From a virus (taxonomy: Duplodnaviria > Heunggongvirae > Uroviricota > Caudoviricetes), in IMG/VR virus record IMGVR_UViG_3300047666_001531: DNA of 64,000 bases, one strand, 5' to 3'. The notes beneath the pieces were generated by a model. The model made no database searches and was not told the origin of the DNA. It was given only the letters and a program-made list of their open reading frames with translations. Shown here in pieces: positions 20,119 through 54,924 of this stretch (position 1 is its first letter; each line of letters opens with the position of its first letter). Both the position numbers and the translations under genes were made by a program.

Positions 20119-20148
20119 TTGCTTTTAATCGTGTACACGAGTATAATA
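20119..20148 (+). promoter_or_regulatory. class-B promoter: TTGCTT, 17 nt spacer containing palindrome TCGTGTACACGA, TATAAT
   Basis: Perfect 12-bp palindrome at 20129-20140 between the hexamers. Confidence 0.55.
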
Positions 20149-24129: not shown

Positions 24130-24290
24130 TCACTATAGAAAAAGTTGAATTAAGTAGTTCAGCTTTTTCTATCTGAAATTCACTCAGTATCACTAGAGAA
24201 CATTCCTCTGTCGTGAGGTTTTATGCGGTGTTGCTAATTTGTAGTATAAAATATATACTACATGGGAATAAGGCAACATTTGGGATTGAT

Positions 24291-25031
24291 ATGCGAGGAT
24301 ATAGACCGATAAAACGGCTGATCAGAGCGCAAAAAAAGGGCGAAGGTAAAGCCGAGGTTGCAACAAAGAAACAGTTTAAAAACATTCTTTGGCAATCTTC
24401 TCGTGGTTCGCTTGGCAGGAGAAATGTAGCGATAGTTTGGATGTTGTTCGGTAGTGGTTGCAGGATTAACGAAGTGGCAAAATTCAAGGTTTCTGATCTA
24501 ATCAGAGAAACCAATGAATTAAGAACTACTTTTGTTATCAAGGGTGGTTACACCAAAACAGGCAAGCCAAGAGCCGCTTATATTCTCTATAAGAGCCACC
24601 GCAGAGCGATTGAGGCGTGGATTGATGAACTTATAGAAGAAGGTGTAGGTCAATCTGGTGAAGAGTCTTATAGAGGCTTACGAAAAGATTATCCTTTATT
24701 TGCCATTACTAAAAAAGGTCGATATTGGCGCAAGATGGCATTTAGGGACAAAAAGTACAAAGATGCTGAAGGGAACATTAAAACCACAAAGGTTTGTGGC
24801 TCGTTACAAAATCTGATTAGTGAGCTATTTAAGAACGCTGGTTTACATGGCGGCTCATCACATTCAGGGCGAAGAACGCTTGCTACTTGGCTTGACCAAA
24901 AAGGGATTGAGCTTAAAACGATACAACTTATTTTGGGGCATGAAGATGCCAACATGACACTTGAATATATTGATCCCAATTTTGAACGTATACAAGCTGC
25001 TTTTGATAAAACATTAATCAATATTGATTAG
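24291..25031 (+). CDS. tyrosine recombinase, catalytic domain only, about 247 aa
   Basis: GCRINEV (Arg I), HSGRRTLAT (HxxR) and LGHEDANMTLEYI (His-II plus nucleophile Tyr). No N-terminal core-binding domain. Confidence 0.65.
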   Translation: MRGYRPIKRLIRAQKKGEGKAEVATKKQFKNILWQSSRGSLGRRNVAIVWMLFGSGCRINEVAKFKVSDLIRETNELRTTFVIKGGYTKTGKPRAAYILYKSHRRAIEAWIDELIEEGVGQSGEESYRGLRKDYPLFAITKKGRYWRKMAFRDKKYKDAEGNIKTTKVCGSLQNLISELFKNAGLHGGSSHSGRRTLATWLDQKGIELKTIQLILGHEDANMTLEYIDPNFERIQAAFDKTLINID

Positions 25032-25043
25032 AGGTAAATTAAA

Positions 25044-25259
25044 ATGACTGAGAAAAAAGAGAAACCTAACAAAGATCTTGAGTACAACAAGAAACGCATA
25101 CCTATCTTACGTGTTGAGGCTACAACGGCTGATAGCGAAGATGAAATTGAAGAAATGTTTCAGATGAAAGACCATGTTATTGAAAAATCAGGTTCGGCAA
25201 AACAAGGCATTATTGACATGTATAGGTTTGCCAAAAAGAACGGTTATTTTAATAAATAA
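25044..25259 (+). CDS. hypothetical protein, 71 aa
   Basis: gaggtaaattaaaATG start. Confidence 0.4.
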   Translation: MTEKKEKPNKDLEYNKKRIPILRVEATTADSEDEIEEMFQMKDHVIEKSGSAKQGIIDMYRFAKKNGYFNK

Positions 25260-25262
25260 TAA

Positions 25263-25291
25263 TTGACTTTCTCGTGTACACGAGTATAATG
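25263..25291 (+). promoter_or_regulatory. class-B promoter: TTGACT, 16 nt spacer containing palindrome CTCGTGTACACGAG, TATAAT
   Basis: 14-bp perfect palindrome at 25271-25284. Confidence 0.6.
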
Positions 25292-35772: not shown

Positions 35773-35784
35773 AATAATTTCTAG

Positions 35785-37059: not shown

Positions 37060-37071
37060 AGGAGTATAAGC

Positions 37072-39876: not shown

Positions 39877-40083
39877 GTGCCGTCAGAAGATAAAGAAGCG
39901 CTCGCTGAAAGGCTTGCGAAATTAATGGCTAAGATGGATTCGGTTAGAGAAACTTCTTTAGAAGCAGAATTAATGGTTCAGCGTGTATCGGGCGATTTGA
40001 TGCGCATGATGAACTCAGCGTTGCTCAATCTTTCTGATATTGAAAGTATAACAAACAAAATTAAGTCCCAAAGCAGTGACTAG
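39877..40083 (+). CDS. hypothetical protein, 68 aa (GTG start)
   Basis: Strong aggagg SD 7 nt upstream of GTG. TGtgTATATAAT promoter at about 39850. Confidence 0.4.
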   Translation: MPSEDKEALAERLAKLMAKMDSVRETSLEAELMVQRVSGDLMRMMNSALLNLSDIESITNKIKSQSSD

Positions 40084-40117
40084 TGTTCTTGCTATTATTT
40101 TCTATGTAGGTTGAATT

Positions 40118-40315
40118 ATGCAGCATCAATTCCAAGACAAAAGTTTTAAGCACAAGCCATCGAAGTGGTGGCAGATGGTTAACGTGGTAAGCTGTTTAGA
40201 TTTTACCGGTGGTTTAAGCGGCGGTGGAACTCTATACAAAGTGTATAGTTTAAGGCTGTGGAATTTTGAAGTTAAAAGATGGCCAATTGTGCAACATGGG
40301 TGTGATTTGGTTTAG
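40118..40315 (+). CDS. hypothetical protein, 65 aa
   Basis: ORF only, weak SD. Confidence 0.2.
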   Translation: MQHQFQDKSFKHKPSKWWQMVNVVSCLDFTGGLSGGGTLYKVYSLRLWNFEVKRWPIVQHGCDLV

Positions 40316-40344
40316 CGTTAAAATGAGGTTAGGATAAGTTTTGT

Positions 40345-40587
40345 ATGGATATAATATTAACCCTACTGTTTTTTATATGTATTTTTGTTGTTGGTTATCT
40401 TGTTAAATCTGGTTCGCCTAAAACTATTCACACGCTCAACAGTGCCAATAAAGCCATTAGAAGCCTAAAGGCTAGCTATCTTGCTTTCTTCGTTCGACCT
40501 TTAAGCCACAAGAGGGGTAAGTGGTTTTTGATTGGTCTGATGGGGATCTGTTACGTCAGCATAATAATCTACGTTTTCTCAAAATAA
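40345..40587 (+). CDS. small membrane protein, 80 aa
   Basis: Two hydrophobic helices. Confidence 0.35.
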   Translation: MDIILTLLFFICIFVVGYLVKSGSPKTIHTLNSANKAIRSLKASYLAFFVRPLSHKRGKWFLIGLMGICYVSIIIYVFSK

Positions 40588-40637
40588 TGATTGATTGAGA
40601 TTATCGTATTTCAATATAGAGAAGGCGTTTAATTATC

Positions 40638-40934
40638 ATGATGGACTTAAATTACTTGTTGATTAACAATAGCAATCAGCTATTGGGGTTTGATACAGTG
40701 CTAAAGGCTCAAGAGTATCTTGATGCTAACACCCACGAGTTCGAGCACAAAAAGGTGTTTCACCCTTGCTTGTTTGAAGATCTATATAGTGGTGTTTTAG
40801 CTGGTTGTGCCATGGCGGTAATGTTTAAAAATAAAAAATTCAAATTAAGGGCAGTTGGTAGTGTCGATTGGATAATAGAAGATCACTCAAATACTGACTT
40901 GTACTTTCAAAACAAAAAAACGATTGACAAATAA
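40638..40934 (+). CDS. hypothetical protein, 98 aa
   Basis: gagaaggcgtttaattatcATG start. Stop lies 3 nt after the TTGACA of the next promoter. Confidence 0.4.
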   Translation: MMDLNYLLINNSNQLLGFDTVLKAQEYLDANTHEFEHKKVFHPCLFEDLYSGVLAGCAMAVMFKNKKFKLRAVGSVDWIIEDHSNTDLYFQNKKTIDK

Positions 40935-40952
40935 TTTTAAAATGATAAAATA
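40917..40952 (+). promoter_or_regulatory. class-A promoter
   Basis: aaaacGATTGACAAAtaattttaaaaTGaTAAAAT. Confidence 0.6.
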
Positions 40953-41028
40953 GTTTCATGATGTGAGTTGCTTAGCACGATGCTTAGTGTGACCACGAAA
41001 AGATGTAAAACTACTTGGATGTTAGATC

Positions 41029-41808
41029 ATGAAAAAAATAATCACTGCGGCAGCTGTCGCGATCCTATCTTTAAGCTTTACCGCTAACGCATACCAAGCA
41101 GAATTTGAGTGTGCAGAGCTTACCATTGACAATATCAAGAGCATTTATGATGCTCGAACAGACATTTTAATAAAAAACCCATATATGGATGGTGTCTGTG
41201 CAGGAATAACCTTTTCAGATGATGATAAGGGCAAGTTCAATGAATATTACAAATCAATAGGTGTCCCTGATAAGTTTTTTACGGGGGTACAAGGTGATTT
41301 TCAACGTGCAGTGCATGCTAAAACTAAATCAGGCAGTGTATTTCAAAAGATAATTTACGTTGTCGATGGTGAACGCGCTGAAAAAGTAGCTGGTGGATTT
41401 GGGGAACGTAACGCTGGTAGAAAAAAGCGTGAAGAAATAATGTTCTACCACGAAGTGTCTCACCTGATCAAAGATTCGTTGGATAAAATGGATGTAGACA
41501 GCCGAGAGCTTGAAACGATGGCAGATATTAGCGCTTTGTATATTTACGCCCACGTGAACGGTTTAACGCAAGAGCAGTTCGAACGTGAGGTTTATCATCT
41601 TTTTAGAGATAGACAGAGCAGTGGTGAGAGAAAAGGCTATGGTTGGTATCACAAAGGCATTTGGTTGGCGTTTTTAAATGACGACAATAACTTTAAAAAT
41701 GTAGACATGAAAAGTCTGAGCGGCGTTTATGATTATATTTATGGATTAAGAAAGTTGGCTAATGATAAGCCTAAAGATATTGTTGGTATATTAGGTTCGT
41801 TTTTCTAA
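41029..41808 (+). CDS. secreted protein with HExxH motif (putative zincin), 259 aa
   Basis: Signal peptide MKKIITAAAVAILSLSFTANA. FYHEVSHL zinc-binding-like motif. Confidence 0.45.
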   Translation: MKKIITAAAVAILSLSFTANAYQAEFECAELTIDNIKSIYDARTDILIKNPYMDGVCAGITFSDDDKGKFNEYYKSIGVPDKFFTGVQGDFQRAVHAKTKSGSVFQKIIYVVDGERAEKVAGGFGERNAGRKKREEIMFYHEVSHLIKDSLDKMDVDSRELETMADISALYIYAHVNGLTQEQFEREVYHLFRDRQSSGERKGYGWYHKGIWLAFLNDDNNFKNVDMKSLSGVYDYIYGLRKLANDKPKDIVGILGSFF

Positions 41809-41895
41809 CAAGAAAATTGCTGCAAGTGTAAAAGCTAAATCTATTAAACCTGATCATACAGTCTTTGGTGGTCTGGACTAATTAATTTTGAATAT

Positions 41896-41928
41896 AAAAA
41901 AGGTGGCAATTAGCCACCTTTTTTGCTT
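41896..41928. terminator. bidirectional rho-independent terminator (A6-ggtggc-aatta-gccacc-T6)
   Basis: Lies between convergent genes 41029..41808 and 41942..42406. Confidence 0.65.
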
Positions 41929-41941
41929 TTTTTAAGTCGCG

Positions 41942-42406
41942 TTAGAAGTTAAAACGCGCACCAAGAGTAACGACATCTGTTGAGTCGAAATTTTCATACA
42001 TCACTTCAAGCTCCCAATCATTACTTAACTGGAAACTTGAGCCAACGCCCATACCAAATTCCCACTCGTTATGTCCATCAGATTTGATGTTAGCGTAAGC
42101 GGGTTGCACGAAAAATGATGCAACGTCGTTTGCTTGATAATCAACGCGAGTTGCGACAACCATATAACGGTCAATTTCAAATCCGCGATAATTTTTAACG
42201 CCAGTGCCGACACGAAGTTCTGGCATAACGCTCCAATTGCTGTGGTTATCGTCAAAGGTGTAGCCGGCATTGACTGTTACTGCGGCAAGTGACGGGTCTC
42301 CGTTTGATAAATGAGAGTAGCTAGTGCCCAGGTTCCAATCTGCCATTGCGCTTGTTGAAGCTAATGCAAGTGCAGTTACGGCAAGAGTACGTTTTAAAAA
42401 TTTCAT
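41942..42406 (-). CDS. small outer-membrane beta-barrel protein (OmpW/OmpX-like), 154 aa
   Basis: Signal peptide MKFLKRTLAVTALALASTSAMA. Alternating amphipathic strands. C-terminal ...GARFNF with terminal Phe. Confidence 0.6.
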   Translation of the reverse strand: MKFLKRTLAVTALALASTSAMADWNLGTSYSHLSNGDPSLAAVTVNAGYTFDDNHSNWSVMPELRVGTGVKNYRGFEIDRYMVVATRVDYQANDVASFFVQPAYANIKSDGHNEWEFGMGVGSSFQLSNDWELEVMYENFDSTDVVTLGARFNF

Positions 42407-42546
42407 GATATTCCCTTTTTTATAAAAGTGGCTTAATGCCTAGAAGATACTTGAGTTCCCTCAAGTTTTTTGAATGGTTAATATAGCATATAAAGCGGTA
42501 ACTTCAACAAAGCAAAGGTTTGTTTTGACAACTTTTGTTATTGAGG

Positions 42547-42762
42547 TTAAGCCGCTATTTTTAGTTCTGTAACATTGCTTATGCGTTCGACATTGATACA
42601 GCCTTTGTAGGCACTTGTGATCTTAACGGATTCGCCAGCAATGATATCGCTGTCAGTGTTTAAAAACCAAATACGATCAGCAATGACAATAGAATTGCCA
42701 AGCCCTGAATGCTTAGGCTTTGTGGTAATATCTTCTTTTATTTTAATGACCATACCGGCCAT
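42547..42762 (-). CDS. hypothetical protein, 71 aa
   Basis: ORF only. Confidence 0.25.
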   Translation of the reverse strand: MAGMVIKIKEDITTKPKHSGLGNSIVIADRIWFLNTDSDIIAGESVKITSAYKGCINVERISNVTELKIAA

Positions 42763-42932
42763 AGATTTGAAAAGCTCTTTTCTTCAATTTCTTTGTTTTT
42801 TGTTTTATATGCCGTTAATCCAATCAACGTAAATAATGCTACTAGTCCAATGTAAATCATATATAACTCCAAATTAATGTAGAGTTATTTTAGTCGAATT
42901 GCCTTTAAATTCAACTAAATCCACCTTATAGA

Positions 42933-42969
42933 TAAAAGATTGACAAAATTATCAAATTGAAATATTATG
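42933..42969 (+). promoter_or_regulatory. class-A promoter (TTGACA, 17 nt spacer, TATTAT)
   Basis: aaaaGATTGACAAAattatcaaattgaaaTATTAT. Confidence 0.55.
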
Positions 42970-42997
42970 AATGTATGAGTAAACAAGGCTTAAAAAG

Positions 42998-43732
42998 ATG
43001 AAACAAGAAGCAGATATAGTCGCAGCAATGATTGCAGCAAGTTATGAAGTTGTTAAAGAAAAATACCGTAGTTACGTGGATGAAAACTTCACAAGCTATG
43101 TTCACTCGCTTGACTTTGTTGCTGGCAGAGGACGTAGAACATCGCACAAAAAGCGCGGTACTAAGCATATAATCACCTATGGCGTAAAGGCAGTTGTCAG
43201 TAAGATGCAGAGTAAGCAAATTGCTTCCAGATGGTTGTCTGGCCGAGAGATTGTTGATATGGGCTTCTTTGGTGGTGAGTTGACGTTAAAGAACAGCTTG
43301 ATCCACACTATCATTCATGAGTATGCACATTACTTGCAAGTTCTGGAGGGTGGAAGAACCAAAAACAGCATTCATAATTGTTACTTTTATTCTGTCCTTC
43401 GTCGCCTTTACGATGATGGTTTGGCTGTAGAGTTATCGGCATATTTTGATAATGATCCGGTGTTAAAGGAATTGTGCTTTAAAGATGTTGTTAATAGTGA
43501 TATCGCCCCTAATGACAATACAGATATTTATAGTCCGCAGACTGTGAATAAGGGCGATGTAGTGATATTCGATGCTACGTTTAAAATGTTAGGTGTTGTT
43601 GAAGTCGAAGGGGCAGTTAAAAGGGCAAACACTAAAACTGTTTCGGTCAGTATAAAAAACCCTTTAGATAAATTTATGGCGCTTGATTATAGAGTGCCGT
43701 ATCACCTGATTAAAAACAAAAGTAAGAGATAA
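42998..43732 (+). CDS. SprT-like zinc metallopeptidase domain protein, 244 aa
   Basis: LIHTIIHEYAHYLQ HExxH block after a basic region, the SprT/WLM pattern. Confidence 0.5.
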   Translation: MKQEADIVAAMIAASYEVVKEKYRSYVDENFTSYVHSLDFVAGRGRRTSHKKRGTKHIITYGVKAVVSKMQSKQIASRWLSGREIVDMGFFGGELTLKNSLIHTIIHEYAHYLQVLEGGRTKNSIHNCYFYSVLRRLYDDGLAVELSAYFDNDPVLKELCFKDVVNSDIAPNDNTDIYSPQTVNKGDVVIFDATFKMLGVVEVEGAVKRANTKTVSVSIKNPLDKFMALDYRVPYHLIKNKSKR

Positions 43733-43812: not shown

Positions 43813-45597
43813 ATGCCAAATACTAAAAACGCCGTTAAAGTTACTCAGGACGACTTTAAGGTAGATAAATCTATCATCCGACACTTGATATTCTCCCAAG
43901 CCGGAACACTCTCTAAAGCCTTACTCGAATTAATTATGAACTCGTTGGATGCCCATTGTGAAAGCATTAGCGTTGATTTTTCTGATGATATGCGTCGTGT
44001 TGTTGTAAAAGATAACGGCACAGGCTTTGAAAGTGTCGAATCTATCCAAAATTTGTTTGGTGTGTTTGGCTTTGATCACACTACTCAAGCCGAAATTGCT
44101 CGTGGCAGAAGCTACGGAAGATTTGGTCTTGGTCGAGCGCAATGTTTAGCATTTGGTTCGACTGTGTGGACGACTAATCAGTTTACGATGGAAGTCGATT
44201 TAAAAGGCAACAAGACTAATGATCTGCCTTACATCATCAAAGAACACGGCAAGAGCCTACACAAAGGTTGTATGATTGAGATCAATTTATACGATCACAT
44301 GTCTATTCACGATAAGCGTAGTTTAGGTTCAGAATTAAAACGCATGGCTAAATATGTTAAAGAAGATTTACGTATTGATGGCACTCGTGTAAATGAATCG
44401 ATTGACGAAGTAAAGTGGAGCGCCACTAACGATGATTTTCTGTTTTTGAAAGCGCAAAGTGAACGTGGCCTCGCGATTTACAACAAAGGCGTATTAGTCT
44501 GCACCTATGGCCATAGTAAATTTGGCGTATCAGGTGATTTAGTCTCAAGAGATAAAAACTTTGCAGTTAATATGGCGCGAAATGATGTGTTGGTTGCAGA
44601 ATGTGAGCTTTGGAAATCAATTCCTGCGTTTCTTAAACCTTTTTCTGAAAAAAAGGAAAGAAAAACACTTACCAATCAAGATCGCATTTACCTTATATCT
44701 CAAGTAATGCAAGGTGATTTAAGTTATGAAGCCATAAAAACAAAACGAATTTTCCAAAATGCAGATGGTAAATATTTTACATTAAAGCAGGTCTTTAACC
44801 ATGCAAATGGTAATATTACTATTGCTCCTGATCGCATGGTTCAATATAAAGGGATGGGTTTGCATCGCCGAAAAATTGCTTTTTGTTTCAGTTACGATTT
44901 TGCTGACAGTCATGGCTTTAAAAATATCGAAGAAATGTTTGACGAATTAAAAAAAGTGATTTCGATAACGGACTACAGTTTCGATTTTGCAAGATTCAAG
45001 GCAATAGATTTCGAAGAAGCCTCAAAAATGGTGGTCGATACGCATGATATTATTCCAGACTCCGAGTTGGGTGCGCTTGATAAAACTCGACTTAAAGCAA
45101 CTAAGTCAATGTATGAACTATTAAAGAAAAATTTTATTTCGGTTGAGTGTAACGCTGGAAGATTCGATATGAGCGCTTTTAAGGGCTATATGGAACGTGA
45201 GAGCGCTTTAAATGACAAGTATCATCGAAATATTTGTTTAGGTCGTTCAGAAGTTGCTAAAGCATGGACAGATGGTAGCCGTTATATTGCGATTGATATT
45301 GATGTTGTTAGAAAGTCGTTTGAATCAGGTTTGAATGGGTTGCTTAACCTTGTATCAATATTGGTGCATGAAATGTGTCATGATTCGCCTACAACGGGAA
45401 GTCATGACCATGATGCTGATTTTTATGAACGATATCATGATGTGATGATAGATGGTGATTTAAATGTGTTTTCTGTCGCCACACGTGGTTTAGAGTCTTA
45501 CATGGTAGAAAACAAAAAGAACAATCGTCCTCTTTCAAGTAGAGAAGTGCGAAATTTCTTTCCTGTGTTTGAGAAGATGATTAAGCAAGCCGTTTAA
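43813..45597 (+). CDS. GHKL-family ATPase fused to a C-terminal HExxH zincin-like region, 594 aa
   Basis: ELIMNSLDA (N-box), VKDNGTGF (G1) and GRFGLGRAQ (G2) define a Bergerat ATP-binding fold. C-terminus carries ILVHEMCHD plus HDHDADF. Confidence 0.55.
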   Translation: MPNTKNAVKVTQDDFKVDKSIIRHLIFSQAGTLSKALLELIMNSLDAHCESISVDFSDDMRRVVVKDNGTGFESVESIQNLFGVFGFDHTTQAEIARGRSYGRFGLGRAQCLAFGSTVWTTNQFTMEVDLKGNKTNDLPYIIKEHGKSLHKGCMIEINLYDHMSIHDKRSLGSELKRMAKYVKEDLRIDGTRVNESIDEVKWSATNDDFLFLKAQSERGLAIYNKGVLVCTYGHSKFGVSGDLVSRDKNFAVNMARNDVLVAECELWKSIPAFLKPFSEKKERKTLTNQDRIYLISQVMQGDLSYEAIKTKRIFQNADGKYFTLKQVFNHANGNITIAPDRMVQYKGMGLHRRKIAFCFSYDFADSHGFKNIEEMFDELKKVISITDYSFDFARFKAIDFEEASKMVVDTHDIIPDSELGALDKTRLKATKSMYELLKKNFISVECNAGRFDMSAFKGYMERESALNDKYHRNICLGRSEVAKAWTDGSRYIAIDIDVVRKSFESGLNGLLNLVSILVHEMCHDSPTTGSHDHDADFYERYHDVMIDGDLNVFSVATRGLESYMVENKKNNRPLSSREVRNFFPVFEKMIKQAV

Positions 45598-46719: not shown

Positions 46720-46756
46720 TAAAAGATTGACAAATTATCATAATGATGTCAATATG
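46720..46756 (+). promoter_or_regulatory. class-A promoter (-35 conserved, -10 uncertain)
   Basis: aaaaGATTGACAAAttatcataatgatgtcaatat. Contains an internal inverted repeat ATTGACA..TGTCAAT. Confidence 0.4.
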
Positions 46757-46816
46757 CATTTAATGATATGCAATATTAATGCATTAACAACTTTATATAA
46801 AATTAGGAAGTCGAAT

Positions 46817-48283
46817 ATGTTGAAATTAACAACCATTCTTGCAGTTACTTTATTAAGCGTTTCAGCTCTTGCTGAAAACGTGAGTATGTTTAACATTCAC
46901 TATAACGACTCATCCGGCACAGGAGTTCGCAGCACTGAACCCTTTACAACAAGTGAAGGTCGTGTGACCACTGTTGGAGAATACAGAAAAGAACTTATTG
47001 AACACACTACGCGTGCTGTTTCATTGCAGTTCAATCATGTTGTCCCTCATAAGCTTGTTCTTGATTTTAAAGCACCTAGCGGTTATGCAGCTTTGACTTC
47101 GGGACCCTCTTTTACTGAGTTTAGTGAATACGACCGTAAAGATAAATTCGGGTTTCTTGAAGTAGGGCGTTCTTATCCAAGCACGCTTGTTAGTGCGCTT
47201 AAATCGATTAAAAACTCTCACGATGAAGATGCGGTTGTTTCGTTTGCTGATAATGTCGATGATTTGCGTACCAATCGAGAACACGTATATCCTCCTATAG
47301 TTTATTCTGCCTACCACGAAATGATGCATGTACTAGGTTTTGTTGGTACAGACTGTTTGGGTAAGTGCATACCTGAGCCGACCAGTAAAAAAGGTCACAT
47401 TTCACCTTATCTTTATTATAATGATAATGGCACTGTAAAGGCTTTTGAGTCGCTTTCAATGACCAAGAAAACTCATGCTTACATGTCAACTGACAAACTG
47501 TGGTTTGGTGGTAGTGAGACGTCAAGAAACGCTGCTATGAAAGAGCTTTCAGCAGGTCATACTAATGGCTTTGTTTATATGTTTGCCACTCCTAGCGTTG
47601 AAACGGGTAGTGTAGATCCACAAGCGGGCAATCATTTTTCGTTTGAAGTTCAGCCGGCGCAGTTGATGCGTTCTTCACGTGCTAGCACTGTTGATATCGG
47701 CATGGCGGCTTATTTACTTTGTGATGCGGGTTGGTGTCAAAGAGGTGGTAAAGTTATTGAGCAGTCGGTAAAGGCTGTATTGAATGAAAATGCGAGCAGC
47801 GACACAGAATCGGTTATTGATATTACGGTAAGCGAAAACCTGAATGTTGGTGTAAAAGAGTTTGAGTTAACAATTATCCCTGATGCGGGGATGAATGTGA
47901 TAGAATTTCAAGATCCAGATGGTGTTTGCTCGGAGAGAAATGGTGGTTATTACTGTTTAGGTGGTCTGAACCCTTACGAGAAAATGAATGCAAGACTTAT
48001 TGTAACGCCATCAAATGAATATACTTTAAAGGGTGATTTGCGTTCTACCGGTTTTGATGTTGATCGTAACGGTTTTAATAACATTTTGGATGTTACATTG
48101 TCTAAAGCGGCAGCCCCACTACCTGTACAAACAGCACCTGTAACCAGTGCTCCTGCGAAAACTGAAAATGGTGGCGGCGGTAGCGGCGGTGGTTCGATGT
48201 CGTTTGTAATGTTGCCTTTATTGCTAGTTGCCTTAATAAGACGTAAGCACGTTGTTGGTAAAGCAGCTGCGGGATCTAAATAA
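46817..48283 (+). CDS. secreted zinc metalloprotease with GlyGly-CTERM sorting signal, 488 aa
   Basis: Signal peptide MLKLTTILAVTLLSVSALA. AYHEMMHVLGF HExxH motif. C-terminus GGGGSGGGSMSFVMLPLLLVALIRRK matches Gly-Gly, TM helix, basic tail of rhombosortase substrates. Confidence 0.6.
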   Translation: MLKLTTILAVTLLSVSALAENVSMFNIHYNDSSGTGVRSTEPFTTSEGRVTTVGEYRKELIEHTTRAVSLQFNHVVPHKLVLDFKAPSGYAALTSGPSFTEFSEYDRKDKFGFLEVGRSYPSTLVSALKSIKNSHDEDAVVSFADNVDDLRTNREHVYPPIVYSAYHEMMHVLGFVGTDCLGKCIPEPTSKKGHISPYLYYNDNGTVKAFESLSMTKKTHAYMSTDKLWFGGSETSRNAAMKELSAGHTNGFVYMFATPSVETGSVDPQAGNHFSFEVQPAQLMRSSRASTVDIGMAAYLLCDAGWCQRGGKVIEQSVKAVLNENASSDTESVIDITVSENLNVGVKEFELTIIPDAGMNVIEFQDPDGVCSERNGGYYCLGGLNPYEKMNARLIVTPSNEYTLKGDLRSTGFDVDRNGFNNILDVTLSKAAAPLPVQTAPVTSAPAKTENGGGGSGGGSMSFVMLPLLLVALIRRKHVVGKAAAGSK

Positions 48284-48634: not shown

Positions 48635-48669
48635 CCAATATTATATCGTGTACATGAATATAATATTGG
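48635..48669 (+). promoter_or_regulatory. class-B-like promoter inside a 35-bp near-perfect palindrome CCAATATTATA-tcgtgtacatga-ATATAATATTGG
   Basis: -10 TATAAT at 48659-48664. Core TCGTGTACATGA is related to the class-B operator. Confidence 0.5.
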
Positions 48670-48705
48670 GTATATAAATCAAACAATATTAAGCAAGGAA
48701 TAAAT

Positions 48706-48891
48706 ATGCCAATACTCATTGCCTCATTATTTTCGGCAATAACAAGCCCATTTTTAATTGGATACTTGCTTTTGCTTAAATTTGATAATATCGGTAGCGA
48801 AACGCTTCTGTCAGGAGTTCCGTTTTTATTTCTGGCGTTGTTGGGATGGCTGAAAATTGTATCAATTTTGCCAAAGCGATTACGAAGATAG
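48706..48891 (+). CDS. small membrane protein, 61 aa
   Basis: agcaaggaataaatATG start. Confidence 0.4.
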   Translation: MPILIASLFSAITSPFLIGYLLLLKFDNIGSETLLSGVPFLFLALLGWLKIVSILPKRLRR

Positions 48892-48936
48892 CTGGCAAGC
48901 TATTGTGAAACATTAACGAGCAAGGAATAAATAAGC

Positions 48937-49809
48937 ATGTTTAATCGAGAGTGGATAATAAAGTATGCAGAGAAAGACTTTAATCCTGAAATTGTAAGTA
49001 TCAACAATATAGCGATAGATAATTTAATATTGCCAAAACTAAATATGGTAATAGATGATTTCACTTATGCTGCTCCTGATTGGGATATTTACAGTATTTC
49101 TAAACTTTGGTTCGTTTTCTGTTCGCAAGCCTTTCAATTTAAACATCTAGAAAATGATGGTGCCAAATCTAAAACGCATTATATGGGGATGACAGGATCA
49201 AACGCTGTCCTTTGCATGATTAAGGATTGCTGGCCGTTAGAAGATAAAATAAACAGAGAAAAATTGGACTTTATTTTAAAAACACTCCCTCTCTACGAGC
49301 AACGCTCATGTATATTGAGCGAGATTTTTAAAGACACTCTAAAGTTAGATGGATTTGTAAGTGAAATTATTGAGTCAGCCCGAAGCGGAATCGTAACTTG
49401 TCAATTAGCCAATAAACTAGCAAGTGAGTTTCCTTTATCTTTTGAAGATCCTTACTTAAAAAAAGCTCAATTAGCTATATCAACGATTGCTGGTTGTGTT
49501 CAGCATAAAGAAGGAGTATCCATAAAAGATGATTTAACGGCATTTGCAGATTACGAAGTACCACGAGTATTGCGTTCGCTAGGTGTTATTGAATATTCAG
49601 AAAACTTGATTTGTAAGTTGCGAAACGGTACACCTATTTTGAAAGACTCTACCGAAGAGTTAGCCATACGTGCAGCGACCATATTGGCTGTTGAGAAAAT
49701 GTCTAACAGTTCTGGTTACAGTGCCTCTCAGCTAGATAATTACTTATGGCAATATCAGAGAAACATTGGTCAAACTGAAGTTCATGTAACTGACACGACC
49801 TTCTATTAA
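48937..49809 (+). CDS. hypothetical protein, 290 aa
   Basis: gagcaaggaataaataagcATG start. Confidence 0.5.
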   Translation: MFNREWIIKYAEKDFNPEIVSINNIAIDNLILPKLNMVIDDFTYAAPDWDIYSISKLWFVFCSQAFQFKHLENDGAKSKTHYMGMTGSNAVLCMIKDCWPLEDKINREKLDFILKTLPLYEQRSCILSEIFKDTLKLDGFVSEIIESARSGIVTCQLANKLASEFPLSFEDPYLKKAQLAISTIAGCVQHKEGVSIKDDLTAFADYEVPRVLRSLGVIEYSENLICKLRNGTPILKDSTEELAIRAATILAVEKMSNSSGYSASQLDNYLWQYQRNIGQTEVHVTDTTFY

Positions 49810-49827
49810 TTTAACAGAGGTATAAAT

Positions 49828-50000
49828 ATGCGCAAGGCGAAGTGTCTTTCGAGTTTAAAAAAATAGTAAAAGCAAAATTTAGAGCAGCAAAATCAGAGCA
49901 AGACTTAGATAAGCTTTTAAACGATCTTCATGACGCAGTTTTGGAGGCAAAAAATAACCCAGACGGTCTTCGTGCCGCAGTTAAGATTCTTAAAAACTAA
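49828..50000 (+). pseudogene. small gene interrupted at an A7 tract (frameshift, or programmed -1 slip)
   Basis: Conserved cassette SD aacagaggtataaatATG. TAG after 12 codons at ttt-aaaaaaa-tag. The -1 frame then stays open for 45 codons to 50000. Confidence 0.3.
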
Positions 50001-50016
50001 TAAGGGAAGTAATAGA

Positions 50017-50592
50017 ATGTTAAGTGAAAACTACAAAAATGCTTTGAATGGTCTTAAAGCCCAAGCTAATGGTAATGTAACAGATTTATTCAAAGAATGT
50101 GAGACTGAAACTCAGCACATATATCGCATTATCATGACAGAAAACGTACCAGTTAATGTAATTGATGAAGCGATGCTTGAAAAGTTTCTTGCTGAAGAAG
50201 CGGAAGGGAAAGTTGACTATTCGAAACCTGTTGATCGTGATGGGTTGAAATACGTTGATTTGGAACAGGATGTTGAAATCTACCCTTGCGTCACACTAGG
50301 TGCAACTACTTTCCCGATTGAAGGACAAAAACATCTGTTATCTTCAATTGATGCAAAAGCTATGCTTGCTCAACTAAGTGGTATGGGGCGTTTAACTCTT
50401 ATTACAAATACAATGCAATCGTTGGCTGAGAGGTTAGATGGTACTCAGTTACAGACGGCATTTCCAAGTCTGAATGAAGTAAAAGCTTGTATTGATGACG
50501 GACTTATATTGCCTCCAGAATTTATTGTAAAAATAGAAGAGTGGAAATCGCTAAACTGCTCAGAAATAAATTTTGATTTTGTCGAGAAGTAA
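50017..50592 (+). CDS. hypothetical protein, 191 aa
   Basis: Refined to the ATG with taagggaagtaatagaATG. Confidence 0.5.
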   Translation: MLSENYKNALNGLKAQANGNVTDLFKECETETQHIYRIIMTENVPVNVIDEAMLEKFLAEEAEGKVDYSKPVDRDGLKYVDLEQDVEIYPCVTLGATTFPIEGQKHLLSSIDAKAMLAQLSGMGRLTLITNTMQSLAERLDGTQLQTAFPSLNEVKACIDDGLILPPEFIVKIEEWKSLNCSEINFDFVEK

Positions 50593-50620
50593 GCTTTGGA
50601 TGTGACGGAGGAATAAATTC

Positions 50621-50773
50621 ATGGATAATTTAAGATTGCGCATTAGCTGTAAAATAATTAGTTTTGGTATTAGATTGATGCCTAAAGATTGGCGAACCAA
50701 AAAACCTATTATCAATCTTATTGCTACCAACATGATTGATAATACACAAAAAGATGTGTCAGATAACAAGTAA
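50621..50773 (+). CDS. small protein, 50 aa
   Basis: gacggaggaataaattcATG start. Not in the ORF track. Confidence 0.3.
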   Translation: MDNLRLRISCKIISFGIRLMPKDWRTKKPIINLIATNMIDNTQKDVSDNK

Positions 50774-50782
50774 GGAATGAAT

Positions 50783-51373
50783 ATGCCTGAATTAAGAATC
50801 GAGCATTTATCGGATTTAGAGTCAGAATTAGAAAAATATATAGACCCCAAAAATATCTTTGGTTTTCGTAAATCATTTATAGAGTGGGTTGCGATTGCTT
50901 GGTCAAATGCTGGCTTTTACGATACGGAAATAAGAGATACCGGGTTTGACAGATCATCATTTCCTGTTGCTGGGAATGTAAAACTAAAAGAAAAAACGAA
51001 AAATTATTGCGATTTTATTAATGCTAACACTGGCAACTCCATGCCTACATTCAATAGCGGCTCAGGAATGAGGTGTGAAACATTTGAAGAAAAACTACAT
51101 GAGTTTTTTGGTGAGAAATGTTCACTGTTTGTAGACAAATACATAGACCGACTTTCGCTTACAGTTCCTAAAACGGGAGAGTTCTCACATTGTGATTCTG
51201 TAGCTGAAATAATTTGGGGTGATGAGATGGATGGGTGTGATGATATTATTATGCGGTTTGGCTGTTTAGGTCATGAAGTTTCTCCATATCTGTGTGAAAT
51301 GAATGGTTTTGATTCATATGCAATGGGCTTGTTTGGTAATTGTAAAATTGCAGATTTTAAAGCAAAAGAATAA
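50783..51373 (+). CDS. hypothetical Cys-rich protein, 196 aa
   Basis: aaggaatgaatATG start. Confidence 0.5.
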   Translation: MPELRIEHLSDLESELEKYIDPKNIFGFRKSFIEWVAIAWSNAGFYDTEIRDTGFDRSSFPVAGNVKLKEKTKNYCDFINANTGNSMPTFNSGSGMRCETFEEKLHEFFGEKCSLFVDKYIDRLSLTVPKTGEFSHCDSVAEIIWGDEMDGCDDIIMRFGCLGHEVSPYLCEMNGFDSYAMGLFGNCKIADFKAKE

Positions 51374-51389
51374 CAAGGGAATAAACACA

Positions 51390-51609
51390 ATGGCATTTGC
51401 AGACGTATTTAAGGGTTTTTGAAGGCAGCTATATTTCCACTCCATGCCCTAAGTGTAGTAAGCCTATGAGCGCCGAAGAAGCTTTCCATTATGATACTTG
51501 CGAACAATGCACCAACGAAGACTGGCATGAATTAAAAGCGTGGAAGTCAGGTGCAGAAAACAAAGATCTAGATGAAAAGTTCTCACCACCAAAGAAAGCC
51601 ATACACTAA
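51390..51609 (+). pseudogene. small Cys-rich gene with probable frameshift at a GGGTTTTT tract
   Basis: Canonical aacaagggaataaacacaATG start stops after 10 codons. The +1 frame, which the ORF track starts at TTG 51397, encodes a 70-aa CPKC..CEQC protein. Confidence 0.3.
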
Positions 51610-51625
51610 CAGAGGAATGGATATA

Positions 51626-52222
51626 ATGTCAGGGCACAAACAAAGATCTCAATTTGAATTAAAGAATAAGCAAACTATAGAGCGGTTTGGGCGAGACAAA
51701 TGCCTTGAAGTTTACGAGATGCCTGGTAAACACATTCCGTTAAAACCTGGGCAAATGTACGCTACTTGGCAGGAAAAGGTTTCAGCAGAACATGGTATTA
51801 GCGAAGACGAAGCAATGGACTTGTGGGCTGCGGGAAATAGCATTATTCAGGAAAAACAATTTGCTAGCAGTGAAGGTATCATCTCAAAAGTTGGAGAGGA
51901 TAAATGCAAGGAGATTTTTGCAGAGATGTTAAAAATAATGACCTCCGACTCTGATTGGCAGAAAACTATATCTGAAAAGTACAACATCGAACAATCTAAT
52001 GTCATCGATGTATTTTTGGCAGGCTCAAGTATTAGTATGAAAGAATCTGCTCCAAGTATTAATGAAACAATGAAGGAATATCACCAGAATAAACATAAAC
52101 TCCCTTCTTGCCCTAAAAAAGAGTGTAATGGAAAACTTCACATTACAGTTTCATTGTCTGAAGAGAACGATGGACTTTACCTCTGTGATAATTGTAGCTC
52201 TACCTTTCGGAAAAAGAAGTAG
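51626..52222 (+). CDS. hypothetical protein with C-terminal zinc ribbon, 198 aa
   Basis: aacagaggaatggatataATG start. CPKKEC...CDNC at the C-terminus. Confidence 0.5.
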   Translation: MSGHKQRSQFELKNKQTIERFGRDKCLEVYEMPGKHIPLKPGQMYATWQEKVSAEHGISEDEAMDLWAAGNSIIQEKQFASSEGIISKVGEDKCKEIFAEMLKIMTSDSDWQKTISEKYNIEQSNVIDVFLAGSSISMKESAPSINETMKEYHQNKHKLPSCPKKECNGKLHITVSLSEENDGLYLCDNCSSTFRKKK

Positions 52223-52249
52223 TTGTTGATAAAACTAACAGAGGAATGT

Positions 52250-52402
52250 ATGAAGCAGATTTTAGTTTGTATTGCAGGGCTTTTACTTTTTTGTGCATTG
52301 ATAGCCGTTGCAAATAATTCAATATGGGCAAGTAAGATATCTTGTATTGGATTTATCATAGCAATAAGCTCTATACTTCTTAAAAGACAACCAAGGAATT
52401 AA
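52250..52402 (+). CDS. small membrane protein, 50 aa
   Basis: aacagaggaatgtATG start. Two hydrophobic helices. TAATG overlap with the next gene. Confidence 0.3.
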   Translation: MKQILVCIAGLLLFCALIAVANNSIWASKISCIGFIIAISSILLKRQPRN

Positions 52403-53001
52403 TGGAAATGAAAAAAAAATTTACAATGAATCTTGGTACATCAGGCTTCTTTCTTGATGTATCTCTTGACGAGGTTGAGGAGAAGTTTATTTCGTCATTT
52501 CATGGGCAGTTCAGAAAAGAAGGCATAAACACAGTATATCCAAAATTGTACTGGCAGATCGTAAATGTGCCTGTTGGTATTAAACGAATTGGCAATATTG
52601 CTTTTGCCCTTGATGTAGACGGTTCAACAGAACCATTTACATCACTATATGATATTTCAAGAGGTGTTTATCGTGAACAAGTAGCCAAGGCTATGAAAGT
52701 AAGACCTAATGATACAAGTCACAACTTATTGGTATTAAATGGTCTAAATAGCGACAATGCTGAACCAATTGATGACAACGTTATTGCGCTAGCAATAAAG
52801 GAAATCGAAAGTGTTCAAAAATTAGATTCTGGTCTAACAGGGTATTTTACCGACACTGATGACCAAGAGAGCCAAAACTTTATTTCATGTTTAATCAAAG
52901 ATGGTTTTCAGAAGTTGAACTATGACGGTTTTGTTAGCCAAGAAGCTACTATGGTTTTTCGTCCGCAGGCTGCATTGCATGAATCAGTCATATGCAAATA
53001 A
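52402..53001 (+). CDS. hypothetical protein, 199 aa
   Basis: caaggaattaATG start. Confidence 0.5.
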   Translation: MEMKKKFTMNLGTSGFFLDVSLDEVEEKFISSFHGQFRKEGINTVYPKLYWQIVNVPVGIKRIGNIAFALDVDGSTEPFTSLYDISRGVYREQVAKAMKVRPNDTSHNLLVLNGLNSDNAEPIDDNVIALAIKEIESVQKLDSGLTGYFTDTDDQESQNFISCLIKDGFQKLNYDGFVSQEATMVFRPQAALHESVICK

Positions 53002-53262
53002 TGTAAATATAACAGCCAGCCCACGTCAAGATGGTGATGTTGAACCTGTTGTTAAAATTGAGTGCTCTCATTTGTCTCCTGCTCAAGCATCGGCAATTTT
53101 AAAAGTTATATACAACAAGTAAGAACGAAATAAAATATGAGCACATCAAAGAATTTTACGTCAAGCATTAAGCGGTTGGTTGAATACAAAAATTATGCCG
53201 TTGGCCATCCCCAGGTTGTTTGGGGGATTTAAGTAGCCTCTAGTGTATAAGTCCGATAGTTA

Positions 53263-53298
53263 TAAAAGATTGATATAATGTTTCATTGTGATAATATA
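53263..53298 (+). promoter_or_regulatory. class-A promoter variant (TTGATA)
   Basis: aaaaGATTGATAtaatgtttcattgTGaTAATAT. Confidence 0.5.
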
Positions 53299-53315
53299 AA
53301 ATAGGAATAGATATT

Positions 53316-53657
53316 GTGCCTGAAAAGTCTCCATTCTCAACTATGGATATAGTTAACGCGTATGAGTATACAAAGAGTGTATCGACTAAGTTTTTTAACG
53401 CCCTTAGAGAAAGTAGGCGGTTTGGATTTAGAATGTGTCAATACAAGATTGACGACCCTCTTGCTAAGGAAGTAAATGCGGTTATTTTTTGTTTGTCACT
53501 TTGTCATCGTGAAAACATTTTATTGAAAGTCAGTGTGGATAATGCTGAGTTCAGAAAGTCATTACAAGAAGCAATTTCAAAATCACAAACATTAAAAAAT
53601 GATGTCGAATTTTTACTATCGTACTCGCCCAATATTGATTGGAATGGTGGCGGTTAA
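53316..53657 (+). CDS. hypothetical protein, 113 aa (GTG start)
   Basis: aggaat SD 9 nt before GTG. Confidence 0.4.
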   Translation: MPEKSPFSTMDIVNAYEYTKSVSTKFFNALRESRRFGFRMCQYKIDDPLAKEVNAVIFCLSLCHRENILLKVSVDNAEFRKSLQEAISKSQTLKNDVEFLLSYSPNIDWNGGG

Positions 53658-53674
53658 GCAACAGAGGAATGGGT

Positions 53675-53878
53675 ATGAGTTACGCGAGAATTAGAACCAA
53701 TTTTATTAACATTAGCAGCACTAACAAGAGACATATATATTCTTATCAAAAATGGTCTCTTTTTAACGTTGCTGTTTCTGCGATCCTTTATTTTGTGGTT
53801 ATTCACTCTAGAGATGGCATAAATGCTATTCCTTACGAAAGTACCTTGCAGGAGATTGTAGGTTTACTATTTTTATAG
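53675..53878 (+). CDS. small membrane protein, 67 aa
   Basis: aacagaggaatgggtATG start. Confidence 0.35.
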   Translation: MSYARIRTNFINISSTNKRHIYSYQKWSLFNVAVSAILYFVVIHSRDGINAIPYESTLQEIVGLLFL

Positions 53879-53886
53879 GTACTGCG

Positions 53887-54222
53887 TTGTTTGTGGGTGG
53901 TCTTTTTCTACATGCACCCAAACAGATTTACTTACTGTCTGAATTTGGAAAGAAAACGTTCTTAGTGAACCCTACAGTATCCAATAATATTGCGAATTTC
54001 CTAGCTTGGTTTCTTCCTGTATCGGTTTTCGCAAGCAACACAAGTGTTTTCCTAAATATGACTTTTGCATACAAATTGTCGATGTTCGCTGTAGTGGCAA
54101 TTGTCGTGTTTGCAAGGGTACGGTCTAATTTTCATAGGTATGCTGCTTTTGAGCAATTTAAAATAGAGTACCCATACGGGTATTTCGAAAGACTTGATGA
54201 ACGCGAGCCTGTATTTAGGTAA
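53887..54222 (+). CDS. membrane protein, 111 aa (start uncertain, TTG or GTG)
   Basis: Three hydrophobic helices. No ATG or SD at the 5' end. Confidence 0.3.
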   Translation: MFVGGLFLHAPKQIYLLSEFGKKTFLVNPTVSNNIANFLAWFLPVSVFASNTSVFLNMTFAYKLSMFAVVAIVVFARVRSNFHRYAAFEQFKIEYPYGYFERLDEREPVFR

Positions 54223-54241
54223 CTTTTAGATAGGAATAAGT

Positions 54242-54460
54242 ATGGAATATACAATGTTGGAAATTATCTTAATGTCTACATCTACTAGCGTTTTGTTTTT
54301 ATGGGTTTTGATGGGTGTATGGACACGGAATGAGTATGAAAAGCTTTCATACAAAGATGGGAAATTAATCAGAGAGCTACCATCTGTCCCCTTCTTCTTG
54401 TTGATGGGTATGGTTGGACTTTACAAATTACAGAAAAACCCTGAAATTCAATTTAAATAG
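54242..54460 (+). CDS. small membrane protein, 72 aa
   Basis: gataggaataagtATG start. Confidence 0.4.
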   Translation: MEYTMLEIILMSTSTSVLFLWVLMGVWTRNEYEKLSYKDGKLIRELPSVPFFLLMGMVGLYKLQKNPEIQFK

Positions 54461-54571
54461 GATTGACAATGAAGGGTTCATTGTTGAGTTTAACAACAAT
54501 TATTAATATTGTTGTTTTTACTTATGGAATAGCTACTGCTTAATTTGTGGTTAACTAAAGGATAAAGTTAA

Positions 54572-54888: not shown

Positions 54889-54924
54889 TGAAAGATTGAT
54901 TTAATCTTTCATTATGATAAAATG
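54889..54924 (+). promoter_or_regulatory. class-A promoter variant (TTGATT)
   Basis: aaaGATTGATTtaatctttcattaTGaTAAAAT. Confidence 0.5.

Follow-up and report, generated by a model that had tools for sequence, protein, structure and literature searches.

A fifteen-gene array behind a dispersed operator-promoter, a likely cargo operon of a large accessory element of marine Colwelliaceae

What is an array of 15 small, closely packed genes, all on one strand behind a palindromic promoter, and in what kind of element does it reside? The array in question occupies positions 48706-54460 of a 64,000-nucleotide (nt) stretch of DNA catalogued as IMG/VR virus record IMGVR_UViG_3300047666_001531; the whole of this stretch is called the window hereafter, and the array genes are numbered g01 to g15 (Table 1). 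On balance, and with moderate confidence, we read the array as an operon of cargo genes on a large replicon, mobile or accessory, of marine Colwelliaceae, and as one member of a repressor-controlled, multi-operon regulon of shuffled genes. The replicon itself would be a megaplasmid, a chromid or a very large island, spanning at least ~0.4-0.6 Mb of contig. Viewed in isolation, the array is an accessory operon of an ordinary kind for a mobile-type element. Beyond what an earlier, sequence-only reading of the same DNA had noticed, its palindrome is one copy of a widely dispersed operator-promoter, and its uniform ribosome-binding site (RBS) is a trait of the whole array class.

The palindromic promoter that the sequence-only reading had placed at 48635 is present as a perfect 12-nt inverted repeat (CCAATATTATAT at 48635-48646 and ATATAATATTGG at 48658-48669, with an 11-nt spacer) together with a TATAAT hexamer. 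Three copies of its core, ATCGTGTACAYGARTATAAT, lie in the window (20128, 25271 and 48645; 0.01 copies expected by chance), each on the plus strand just upstream of a gene. One of these copies heads the unit at 25338-26744, which had been described as similar to the array, and the likeness is borne out by the shared operator-promoter (25271) and the shared RBS type. We refer to the operator-promoter TCGTGTACACGA-G-TATAAT as Pop and counted it as an exact 19-mer. Aligned copies share an AAATAA tract, a CTTGCA -35 element, the palindrome TCGTGTACACGA in the spacer and TATAAT, all in a fixed geometry. Across marine metagenomes (Tara, North Sea and sea ice), the 19-mer occurs 52 times in 43 stretches, and about 51 of the 52 occurrences are genuine, the one in L113 looking like a chance match (L-numbers denote metagenome loci and P-numbers, below, homologous proteins). 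The metagenome copies keep the -35, the upstream AAATAA tract and a 5' untranslated region (5'UTR) ending in AAGGAAT-N6-8-ATG, and the units downstream of them are usually small-gene arrays, with a median gene of 80 aa and, on a crude walk, up to 11-16 genes. The same operator lies in the core promoters of several separate operons, three in the window and three in L092, and one 325-kb contig holds at least seven Pop copies; 80 chromosomal dsbD control loci hold none. Because this operator-promoter heads at least two other operons in the window and dozens elsewhere, the array would appear to belong to a multi-operon regulon. A literature search with the operator sequence brought up no description of it or of Pop-marked arrays.

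The layout suggests how these operons might be controlled. Transcription of the array would start near 48671, from a sigma-70 promoter whose spacer holds the 12-bp palindrome TCGTGTACA(C/T)GA abutting TATAAT. This geometry resembles that of an operator for a dimeric repressor; once bound, the putative repressor would occlude RNA polymerase, and a single regulator would switch all Pop-headed operons together. Derepression, or entry into a repressor-free cell, would then lead to strong transcription and translation of the operons. As single-stranded DNA, the Pop palindromes fold weakly (-5 to -8 kcal/mol, z = -0.9 to -1.6), which makes an operator bound by protein likelier than an Frpo-type promoter. 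The Frpo-like single-strand promoter was itself rejected, since the hairpins are short and weak and the -35 would pair with the -10, and a LexA/SOS box was dismissed on inspection, since the palindrome differs from the LexA form, CTGT-N8-ACAG. No Rfam family was found in the window. As a candidate regulator, we point to the 71-aa protein at 25044-25259, which is conserved beside Pop and has no recognisable domain; the genes that come first behind the canonical Pop copies are candidates as well.

A further promoter lies within the array, where the sequence-only reading had seen none: a strong P1-type promoter at 53268-53297, which would start a second transcription unit near 53304 and, being constitutive in appearance, would let transcription begin anew ahead of the last three genes. 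An almost identical sequence is found at 54891-54923. A pattern search for the P1 motif, aaaaaTGATTGACAAAAt..TTTCATTATGATAAAaT, returned 19 hits in the window where 2.2 would be expected, and about 17 of the 19 were judged real, lying 30-100 nt upstream of a gene; its density is 12-fold above that in Colwellia chromosomal DNA of the same GC. Because P1 is stereotyped window-wide, uniform expression signals appear to be a trait of the whole element rather than of the array alone. A P1 site is made up of an A-tract, GATTGACA, ~13 nt and TGATAAAaT, and its conserved spacer TCATTATGA forms a small palindrome loosely like a Fur box. Examples lie at 1266, 18061, 19020, 21318, 22161, 33017, 40922, 43735, 53268, 58995 and 61582, with minus-strand sites at 14683, 17323 and 29434.

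The description of about 15 consecutive same-strand open reading frames (ORFs) up to 54460 held, as did that of uniform translation signals. We counted 15 ORFs, separated by gaps of -1 to 45 nt with a single exception of 83 nt, and the only intergenic repeats that a repeat search found in the array were those of the RBS and the two promoter copies. The hexamer AGGAAT lies 3-13 nt ahead of the start in 8 of the 11 array genes of at least 45 aa, compared with 8 of the 90 genes in the rest of the window (Fisher p = 8e-6), and 12 of the window's 30 plus-strand copies fall in the array. The array consensus is of the type RGGAATR, and longer matches, such as ACTAACAGAGGAATG, occur repeatedly. With a near-identical strong RBS, (A)ACAGAGGAATAAAT-ATG, ahead of each gene, translation would be uniformly high. 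TAATG or ATGA-type junctions had also been described as general, but only one such overlap was found, at 52400 (g09/g10).

Eight array genes we judge to be real and mutually unrelated, since they have their own homologue sets, family motifs and own-frame codon scores; the ORFs of 31-61 aa are putative only. The seven mid-size array proteins were concatenated and searched with HMMER against 1.84 billion representatives. Each of them has a separate homologue set at identities of 30-88% (about 60 homologues for g04, about 40 for g06, and about 5-12 each for g07, g08, g10, g13 and g17), and the alignments carry family-specific motifs. Under a codon model trained on the window's long genes, each array ORF scores highest in its own frame; the smallest hydrophobic ORFs (g01, g09 and g12) have scores of ~0, and scores for the tiny ORFs at 48706, 50621, 52250, 52979 and 53137 are weak to moderate. 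A homologue search with g01 returned only itself. The array region is 99.85-100% conserved across independent metagenome assemblies. An all-against-all blastp comparison of the 437 window ORFs, the check that had been proposed for paralogy, returned no related pair at E < 0.01. Of the two origins put forward earlier, duplication is ruled out by this lack of paralogues, while recruitment fits the evidence; likewise, of the fear that these might be unrelated random ORFs, the first half is borne out, and the second is not for the eight that have homologues.

Further, array genes appear to move singly, and the few breakpoints mapped lie at shared regulatory sequence. L092 and L093 carry a 90%-identical Qng1 gene (10001-10873; the counterpart of g02, see below) in a different 16-gene array behind a Pop copy (9099), and this array bears the same acagaggaataaatATG signals. 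DNA homology between the window and L092/L093 is confined to 48923-49830, that is, from the Qng1 Shine-Dalgarno (SD) sequence to the next gene's ATG. Because the window and L092/L093 both list a 583,042-bp longest contig, they are probably parts of the same replicon. A comparable pattern is seen at the recombinase module: the region 24189-25342 is ~80% identical in nucleotides over the recombinase in L121, L141 and L102, its 71-aa/Pop part is 69-75% identical in L106, L109, L143 and L120, and the homology stops at 25290-25342, where the downstream array begins with its first gene. In L137, g10 has a 66% homologue, which again follows a different Pop copy. Array-gene homologues of greater divergence are found in unrelated contexts, and the neighbours of P0002, P0003, P0070 and P0071 include no other array gene in common with the window. 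Homology blocks thus end at the SD/ATG or at Pop, in the few pairs available, and the shared RBS would serve as exchange points at which single genes are swapped between arrays.

Other loci of the family can be compared with the window outside the array. L128 is colinear with window positions 30989-43732 at 37-73% amino acid identity (the flotillin gene and the genes at 33071, 33439, 40345 and 42998), and after flotillin it has a Pop copy where the window has a P1-type promoter. In the 25338-26744 unit, the fourth gene (26026-26427) ends in a dense Cys cluster, CPICENEECLPREDWCGSCC, and has a 34% homologue in L105.

The claim that no array protein has a recognisable family fell with g02 (48937), which, judged by its sequence matches, is a clear member of the Qng1/Q_salvage family. 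It matches Pfam PF10343 (Q_salvage) over residues 115-290 at E = 2.4e-24 and 86.8 bits, with a gathering cutoff of 25, and the DUF2419 chains 7u07/7uk3 of the Protein Data Bank (PDB) at 1.5e-12. A structural study of Qng1, the DUF2419 queuosine-5'-phosphate glycosylase, supplies the catalytic and base-recognising residues (PMC9881137). On alignment to StQng1, K175, L179, D205, D267, W271 and Y290 of g02 correspond to K199, I203, D231, D298, W302 and Y323, with K175 in KKAQL and D205 in AFADYEVP. Both catalytic residues (D231 of the HhH motif and K199 in StQng1) are kept, as are the 7-deazaguanine pocket (equivalents of D298, W302 and the aliphatic I203) and the C-terminal Tyr. Compared with described Qng1/DUF2419 proteins, with which it shares these matches and every named residue, g02 differs in that its N-terminal 115 residues lie outside the Pfam match, that it is part of what is probably a mobile cargo operon, in a bacterium presumed to have its own de novo synthesis of queuosine, and that it has a 90% paralogue in a second array. 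Sixty-seven homologues of g02 were collected, and Qng1 homologues occur on Azospira and Variovorax megaplasmids; KfrA_N was seen solely near one distant Qng1 homologue. Pattern and tblastn searches found none in GTDB genomes and none in IMG/VR.

For the remaining proteins, no known family was recognised. Nothing significant was found for the array proteins in PHROGs, PADLOC or NCBIfam, ten small proteins drew no Pfam match even at E up to 1, and neither sequence nor profile searches found anything in the PDB for g04, g06, g08 and g10. The predicted structures of g04 and g06 have pLDDT values of 94-96, and these models match no known fold in the PDB. The conserved C-terminal domain of g04 carries the motif LI..TLQSL..R.DGT.L.TAFP...W...GA.E..DF. 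The homologues of g10 are 70%, 44% and 44% identical. The sequence-only reading had described the array as small hydrophobic plus zinc-ribbon proteins, which is true of about 6 of the 15 genes; the largest genes encode soluble proteins, three of them acidic (g04, g06 and g10). CxxC ribbons had been proposed for three ORFs. Those at 51397 and 51626 stand, being conserved in homologues, and g07 and g08 are accordingly predicted to be zinc-ribbon proteins with conserved Cys pairs, while g06 (50783) has eight Cys, only partly conserved, and no CxxC. Homologues of g07 are 69-74 aa long with the N-terminus kept, and 4 of the 5 shown keep the four Cys, P0158 having CHC at the first pair. For g08, the CPxxxC...CDxC motif is kept in P0074 (49% over the full length) and in P0098, P0100 and P0105, which match its C-terminus. 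As for the proposed membrane peptides, hydropathy gives two transmembrane (TM) segments each for g01 (48706) and g09 (52250), one or two for g15 (54242) and at least three for 53675 and 53887 joined; these last two are one split gene, g14, rather than two peptides.

The split in g14 lies at a T5 run at 53869. In L003, a 99.85%-identical metagenome contig, this run is T6 and the gene is intact (184 aa), and the T-run at 52287 is one base shorter, so that the g09 ORF is disrupted there. These single-T changes (L003 positions 13350 and 14933) are the sole indels between the two arrays, and they may reflect on/off variation of g09 and g14. Two out-of-frame starts were also seen, in 49828-49870 and 51390-51422. 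An SD and ATG at 49828, in the -1 frame relative to g03, meets an A7 run (A_AAA_AAA, a classic -1 slippery site) and a TAG; another, at 51390, opens a 10-codon upstream ORF (uORF) in another frame, which overlaps the g07 TTG start and ends at a T5 run. They could reflect uORF coupling, programmed frameshifting or fixed indels. For g07, the downstream frame appears to be the real one, because its TTG-started N-terminus, MQTYLRVFE, aligns with a homologue's MQKYAEVFE.

Table 1. Array genes, promoters and associated features of the window, with coordinates, strand and description
Feature	Coordinates	Strand	Description
g01	48706..48891	+	61 aa; two TM segments, basic C-terminus; putative ORFan; perfect RBS AAGGAATAAATATG; codon score -0.05
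g02	48937..49809	+	290 aa; predicted Qng1/Q_salvage-type queuosine(-5'-phosphate) N-glycosylase
g03	49842..50000	+	52 aa; helical, basic; GTG start; codon score 0.31; protein called in 31 contigs
g04	50017..50592	+	191 aa; acidic, isoelectric point (pI) 4.5; conserved C-terminal domain of ~115 aa
g05	50621..50773	+	50-aa basic putative ORF; supported by RBS and codon bias alone (score 0.16)
g06	50783..51373	+	196 aa; acidic, pI 4.8; in a family of ~200-aa proteins
g07	51397..51609	+	70-aa predicted zinc-ribbon protein, CPKC-14-CEQC; TTG start
g08	51626..52222	+	198 aa; pI 6.3 (near neutral); predicted conserved C-terminal zinc ribbon CPKKEC-19-CDNC
g09	52250..52402	+	50-aa putative peptide; two TM segments
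g10	52402..53001	+	199 aa; acidic, pI 4.9; TAATG overlap with g09
g11	52979..53122	+	47-aa uncertain ORF; overlaps g10 end; no SD; codon score 0.23
g12	53137..53232	+	31-aa doubtful ORF; codon score -0.10; not among collected proteins
g13	53316..53657	+	113 aa; GTG start; codon score 0.16; ~12 homologues, 30-88%
g14	53675..54222	+	multi-TM membrane protein; here split into 53675-53878 and 53887-54222
g15	54242..54460	+	72-aa membrane peptide; last gene of the array
Possible terminator	54492..54521	+	weak AT-rich hairpin, 9-bp stem, then a short T run; -6.1 kcal/mol, z = -2.8
Pop, diverged copy	48635..48669	+	core ATCGTGTACATGAATATAAT at 48645-48664; TATAAT -10 at 48659-48664; canonical CTTGCA -35 missing
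Pop, canonical copy	25271..25290	+	heads five-gene unit 25338-26744; profile E = 1.6e-11
Pop, canonical copy	20128..20147	+	heads genes 20181-20831 and 20887-21198; profile E = 3.4e-11
P1-type sigma-70 promoter	53268..53297	+	TTGATA-16-TGnTAATAT, GATTGATA-N-TGATAATAT; inside the array, in its only long gap
Recombinase module	24213..25259	+	tyrosine recombinase 24213-25031 (272 aa) and 71-aa protein 25044-25259, followed by Pop at 25271

The possible terminator is missing from the terminator scan list because its hairpin has too few G-C pairs.

Several observations bear on the kind of DNA in which the array sits. An accessory element is favoured over a core chromosome because synteny is lacking, neighbours are of mobile type, g04 and g06 have plasmid homologues and P1 is dense. 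Specifically, the DsbD encoded at 55992-57818 is 73% identical to DsbD of Colwellia and Cognaticolwellia, while in 80 related genomes the DNA within 10 kb of dsbD encodes no relative of any of the 40 proteins that flank it here. Eight of 49 further window ORFs have Pfam matches, and the families in the window include a tyrosine recombinase, HipA, an ERCC4 nuclease, dUTPase_2, RNase H, NT5C, cpYpsA, HAD_SAK_2 and GmrSD_N. Just upstream lie an orphan C5-methylase, TnpB and DarA_C, and a single-stranded DNA-binding protein (SSB), DUF4942 and methylases are found at other loci of the element family. Identical DNA was found in ~30 metagenome assemblies, in contigs of 147-583 kb. Homologues of g06 lie on large plasmids of Vibrio breoganii (341 kb, MOBH), Shewanella, Photobacterium and Acinetobacter, where they adjoin ParM, HipA, TnpB and restriction-modification genes, and homologues of g04 lie on Vibrio plasmids. 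HipA accompanies the g06 homologues on three plasmids.

The surrounding genes add some detail. The array's upstream neighbours are a 75-aa ORF and, directly upstream at 46727-48283, a secreted-looking 518-aa protein with an HExxH motif (YHEMMHVLGF), no Pfam match and a C-terminal Gly/Ser linker followed by a hydrophobic anchor. A HipA kinase toxin of 457 aa (34069-35772) is preceded by an ORF of 107 aa, probably encoding a HipB-like partner, and a 594-aa HATPase_c_3 (MORC/Hsp90-like) protein (43813-45597) has no PADLOC match. As to dsbD, it is a recurrent cargo of the element family, with a 44% homologue in the Pop carrier L127. Among the 31 columns that differ between the window and L003, 25 fall within 290 nt of dsbD (56336-56621), including a 6-nt indel; this cluster looks like a short recombination tract.

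What the array does can be suggested in outline. Once the element is derepressed or has just entered a cell, its products would probably target the host, whether for establishment, for takeover or for counter-defence: the acidic proteins might serve as inhibitors or mimics, the membrane peptides might act there as well, and Qng1 might act on queuosine-type nucleotides. Several points weigh against the reading of the array as cargo of a repressor-controlled accessory replicon. First, no known anti-defence or establishment gene was found in the array with Pfam, PHROGs, PADLOC or NCBIfam. Second, no DNA-binding domain (helix-turn-helix or ribbon-helix-helix) could be recognised in the small proteins encoded near Pop copies, and no repressor was identified. 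Third, the array's own Pop copy at 48645 may be weak or defunct, in which case transcription could come from upstream: its operator contains a single mismatch, its arms are extended into the 12-nt palindrome and the canonical -35 is missing. An nhmmer profile built from 46 metagenome copies matches only its core (E = 0.11), although its 5'UTR is homologous to that of the 25271 subfamily. Fourth, no replication, partition or transfer gene and no origin of transfer (oriT) was seen in the ~85 kb read. Fifth, contigs of at most 583 kb with DsbD, TonB-dependent receptor and major facilitator superfamily (MFS) cargo would also fit an unusual chromosomal region. Finally, breakpoints at the RBS could just reflect relaxed selection outside coding DNA, not recombination.

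A bolder extension of the same reading, which we put forward tentatively and consider doubtful, is that Pop arrays constitute an undescribed, attC-less cassette system of large marine gammaproteobacterial elements, in which the Pop/5'UTR head and the 15-20-nt RBS act as portable homology, and in which one repressor silences all arrays and all fire together. Single ORFans, including the acidic proteins with new folds and the mobile Qng1, would then be exchanged among the many arrays of a replicon as well as from one replicon to another, and the system would be a functional counterpart of integrons or of the PeSLs of T4. Within this reading, the mobile Qng1 may act on 7-deazaguanine nucleotides or DNA in conflicts between elements, rather than in tRNA salvage.

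Among the rival explanations, two fare equally well, and both are unlikely. The first would make the array part of a phage or prophage of jumbo or mega size, in its early or host-takeover region, with the palindrome as the phage's repressor site. Numerous tiny ORFans would then be expressed from strong promoters of one stereotyped kind, as in the early and hyperplastic regions of T4. It would account for the ~17 near-identical TTGACA/extended -10 promoters in 64 kb, for the 77 of 96 genes on one strand and for the dUTPase_2, RNase H, NT5C, ribonucleotide reductase, thymidylate synthase, thymidylate kinase, SSB and DNA methylases of the window and its sister loci, and the gene-by-gene mosaicism at regulatory sequence recalls the PeSL cassettes of T4 (PMC2839356, PMC4122927). 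However, when ~170 proteins of the window and its sister loci were scanned against PHROGs, capsid, portal, terminase and tail families were all absent, as was any other structural or packaging family, with the exception of one weak 'baseplate' match (3e-6). The exact Pop 19-mer does not occur in 2.9 million IMG/VR contigs, against its 52 occurrences in metagenomes; neither Qng1 nor g06 has a tblastn match in 50,697 phage records; and the g04 model has no viral fold match in BFVD, whereas g04 and g06 do match plasmids. Searches with megablast and blastn found no match for the array DNA in phage or plasmid collections, the window has no tRNAs, and the TonB-dependent receptor, MFS transporter, DsbD and PEP-CTERM cargo, on contigs of >0.5 Mb, would be atypical of a phage.

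The second, just as improbable in our estimate, is an anti-defence or establishment island of the kind found in the leading region of a conjugative plasmid or an integrative and conjugative element, where the genes expressed first on arrival in a recipient would counteract restriction, CRISPR or SOS. Leading regions described in the literature consist of co-oriented genes, many of them uncharacterised, and are translation-adapted (PMC11541004, PMC13478746). The array shares with them a single orientation, small acidic proteins (pI 4.5, 4.8 and 4.9) and a strong uniform RBS; orphan C5-methylases, DUF4942, DarA_C and SSB occur in the same element family, and the large plasmids with g04 and g06 homologues include one of MOBH type. 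Yet no oriT, relaxase or type IV secretion system was seen near the array, again in ~85 kb, and neither ArdA/B/C, KlcA, PsiB nor an Acr was detected in it; Pfam, NCBIfam and PHROG matches to SOS-inhibition or SSB genes were likewise absent from the array. Moreover, the palindromes are not Frpo-like and cannot present both -35 and -10 in a stem, and Pop arrays are scattered over hundreds of kilobases instead of standing at one leading end.

An integron-like platform, in which a tyrosine recombinase beside a promoter captures promoterless single-gene cassettes, is considerably less likely still. The conserved module of recombinase, 71-aa protein and Pop is indeed followed by hypervariable arrays, with homology stopping at the first cassette; L092 has the same layout with a diverged recombinase-like gene; and the cassettes are single, unrelated and mostly promoterless genes. 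The gaps of -1 to 45 nt, however, hold no attC-like imperfect palindrome, the repeated sequence being the non-palindromic RBS, and a Vibrio-type superintegron (attC/VCR) was ruled out, there being no such intergenic repeats. The recombinase (24213-25031) is upstream and co-oriented rather than divergent, no recombinase adjoins the 15-gene array, and an integrase lies beside few of the metagenome Pop copies (3 of 100 large ORFs). That the tract might be mostly non-coding AT-rich DNA with chance ORFs, or decaying pseudogenes, is least credible of all: the codon scores of ~0 for g01, g09 and g12, the want of a g01 homologue, the two frame problems (49828/49842 and 51390/51397) and the split gene at 53869 would fit it, but eight ORFs with homologues at 30-90% and conserved motifs, two confident predicted folds, own-frame codon scores and the near-complete conservation between assemblies speak against it, and for the eight mid-size genes it is refuted.

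The 19-nt operator-promoter offers a searchable handle to large, almost uncharacterised elements of marine Alteromonadales and to their hypervariable arrays. If they do answer to one repressor, dozens of ORFan operons could be turned on at once in one experiment, and if the RBS copies are indeed exchange points, they would provide a simple, recombinase-free route to cassette shuffling. The array further yields two well-folded protein families without structural relatives, by prediction, and a mobile, duplicated Qng1.

How, then, does the array of a Pop-headed accessory replicon compare with known systems? Like the leading-region islands of plasmids (PMC11541004, PMC13478746), it consists of compact, co-oriented small genes on a transmissible element with signs of efficient translation; it differs in that an oriT context, an Frpo and known anti-defence genes are all lacking, and in the dispersal of its arrays. 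The hyperplastic regions and PeSL cassettes of T4 are likewise arrays of small ORFans flanked by repeated regulatory sequence at which gene swaps break (PMC2839356, PMC4122927), although here the repeat is an RBS of ~15-20 nt rather than a promoter with a stem-loop, there is no sign of a phage, and DNA, PHROG, phage-record and IMG/VR searches did not place the array in a T4-type phage genome. With integron cassette arrays, it shares a recombinase and promoter followed by variable, promoterless single-gene cassettes, and it departs from them in lacking attC, in the orientation of the recombinase and in that most arrays have no recombinase. The kil-kor regulon of IncP-1 plasmids, whose kilA, kilC, kilE and kfrA promoters contain KorA, KorB and KorC operators, and the C1 operators scattered over the phage-plasmid P1 offer a further parallel. 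There, too, a short palindromic operator lies at the core promoters of many operons on a mobile replicon, several of these operons encode small uncharacterised proteins, and a burst of expression would be expected where the repressor is absent. The operator described here is unrelated to theirs, no homologue of Kor, C1 or another repressor was found, and it is spread over a far larger replicon in much greater number, reaching at least seven copies per 325 kb.

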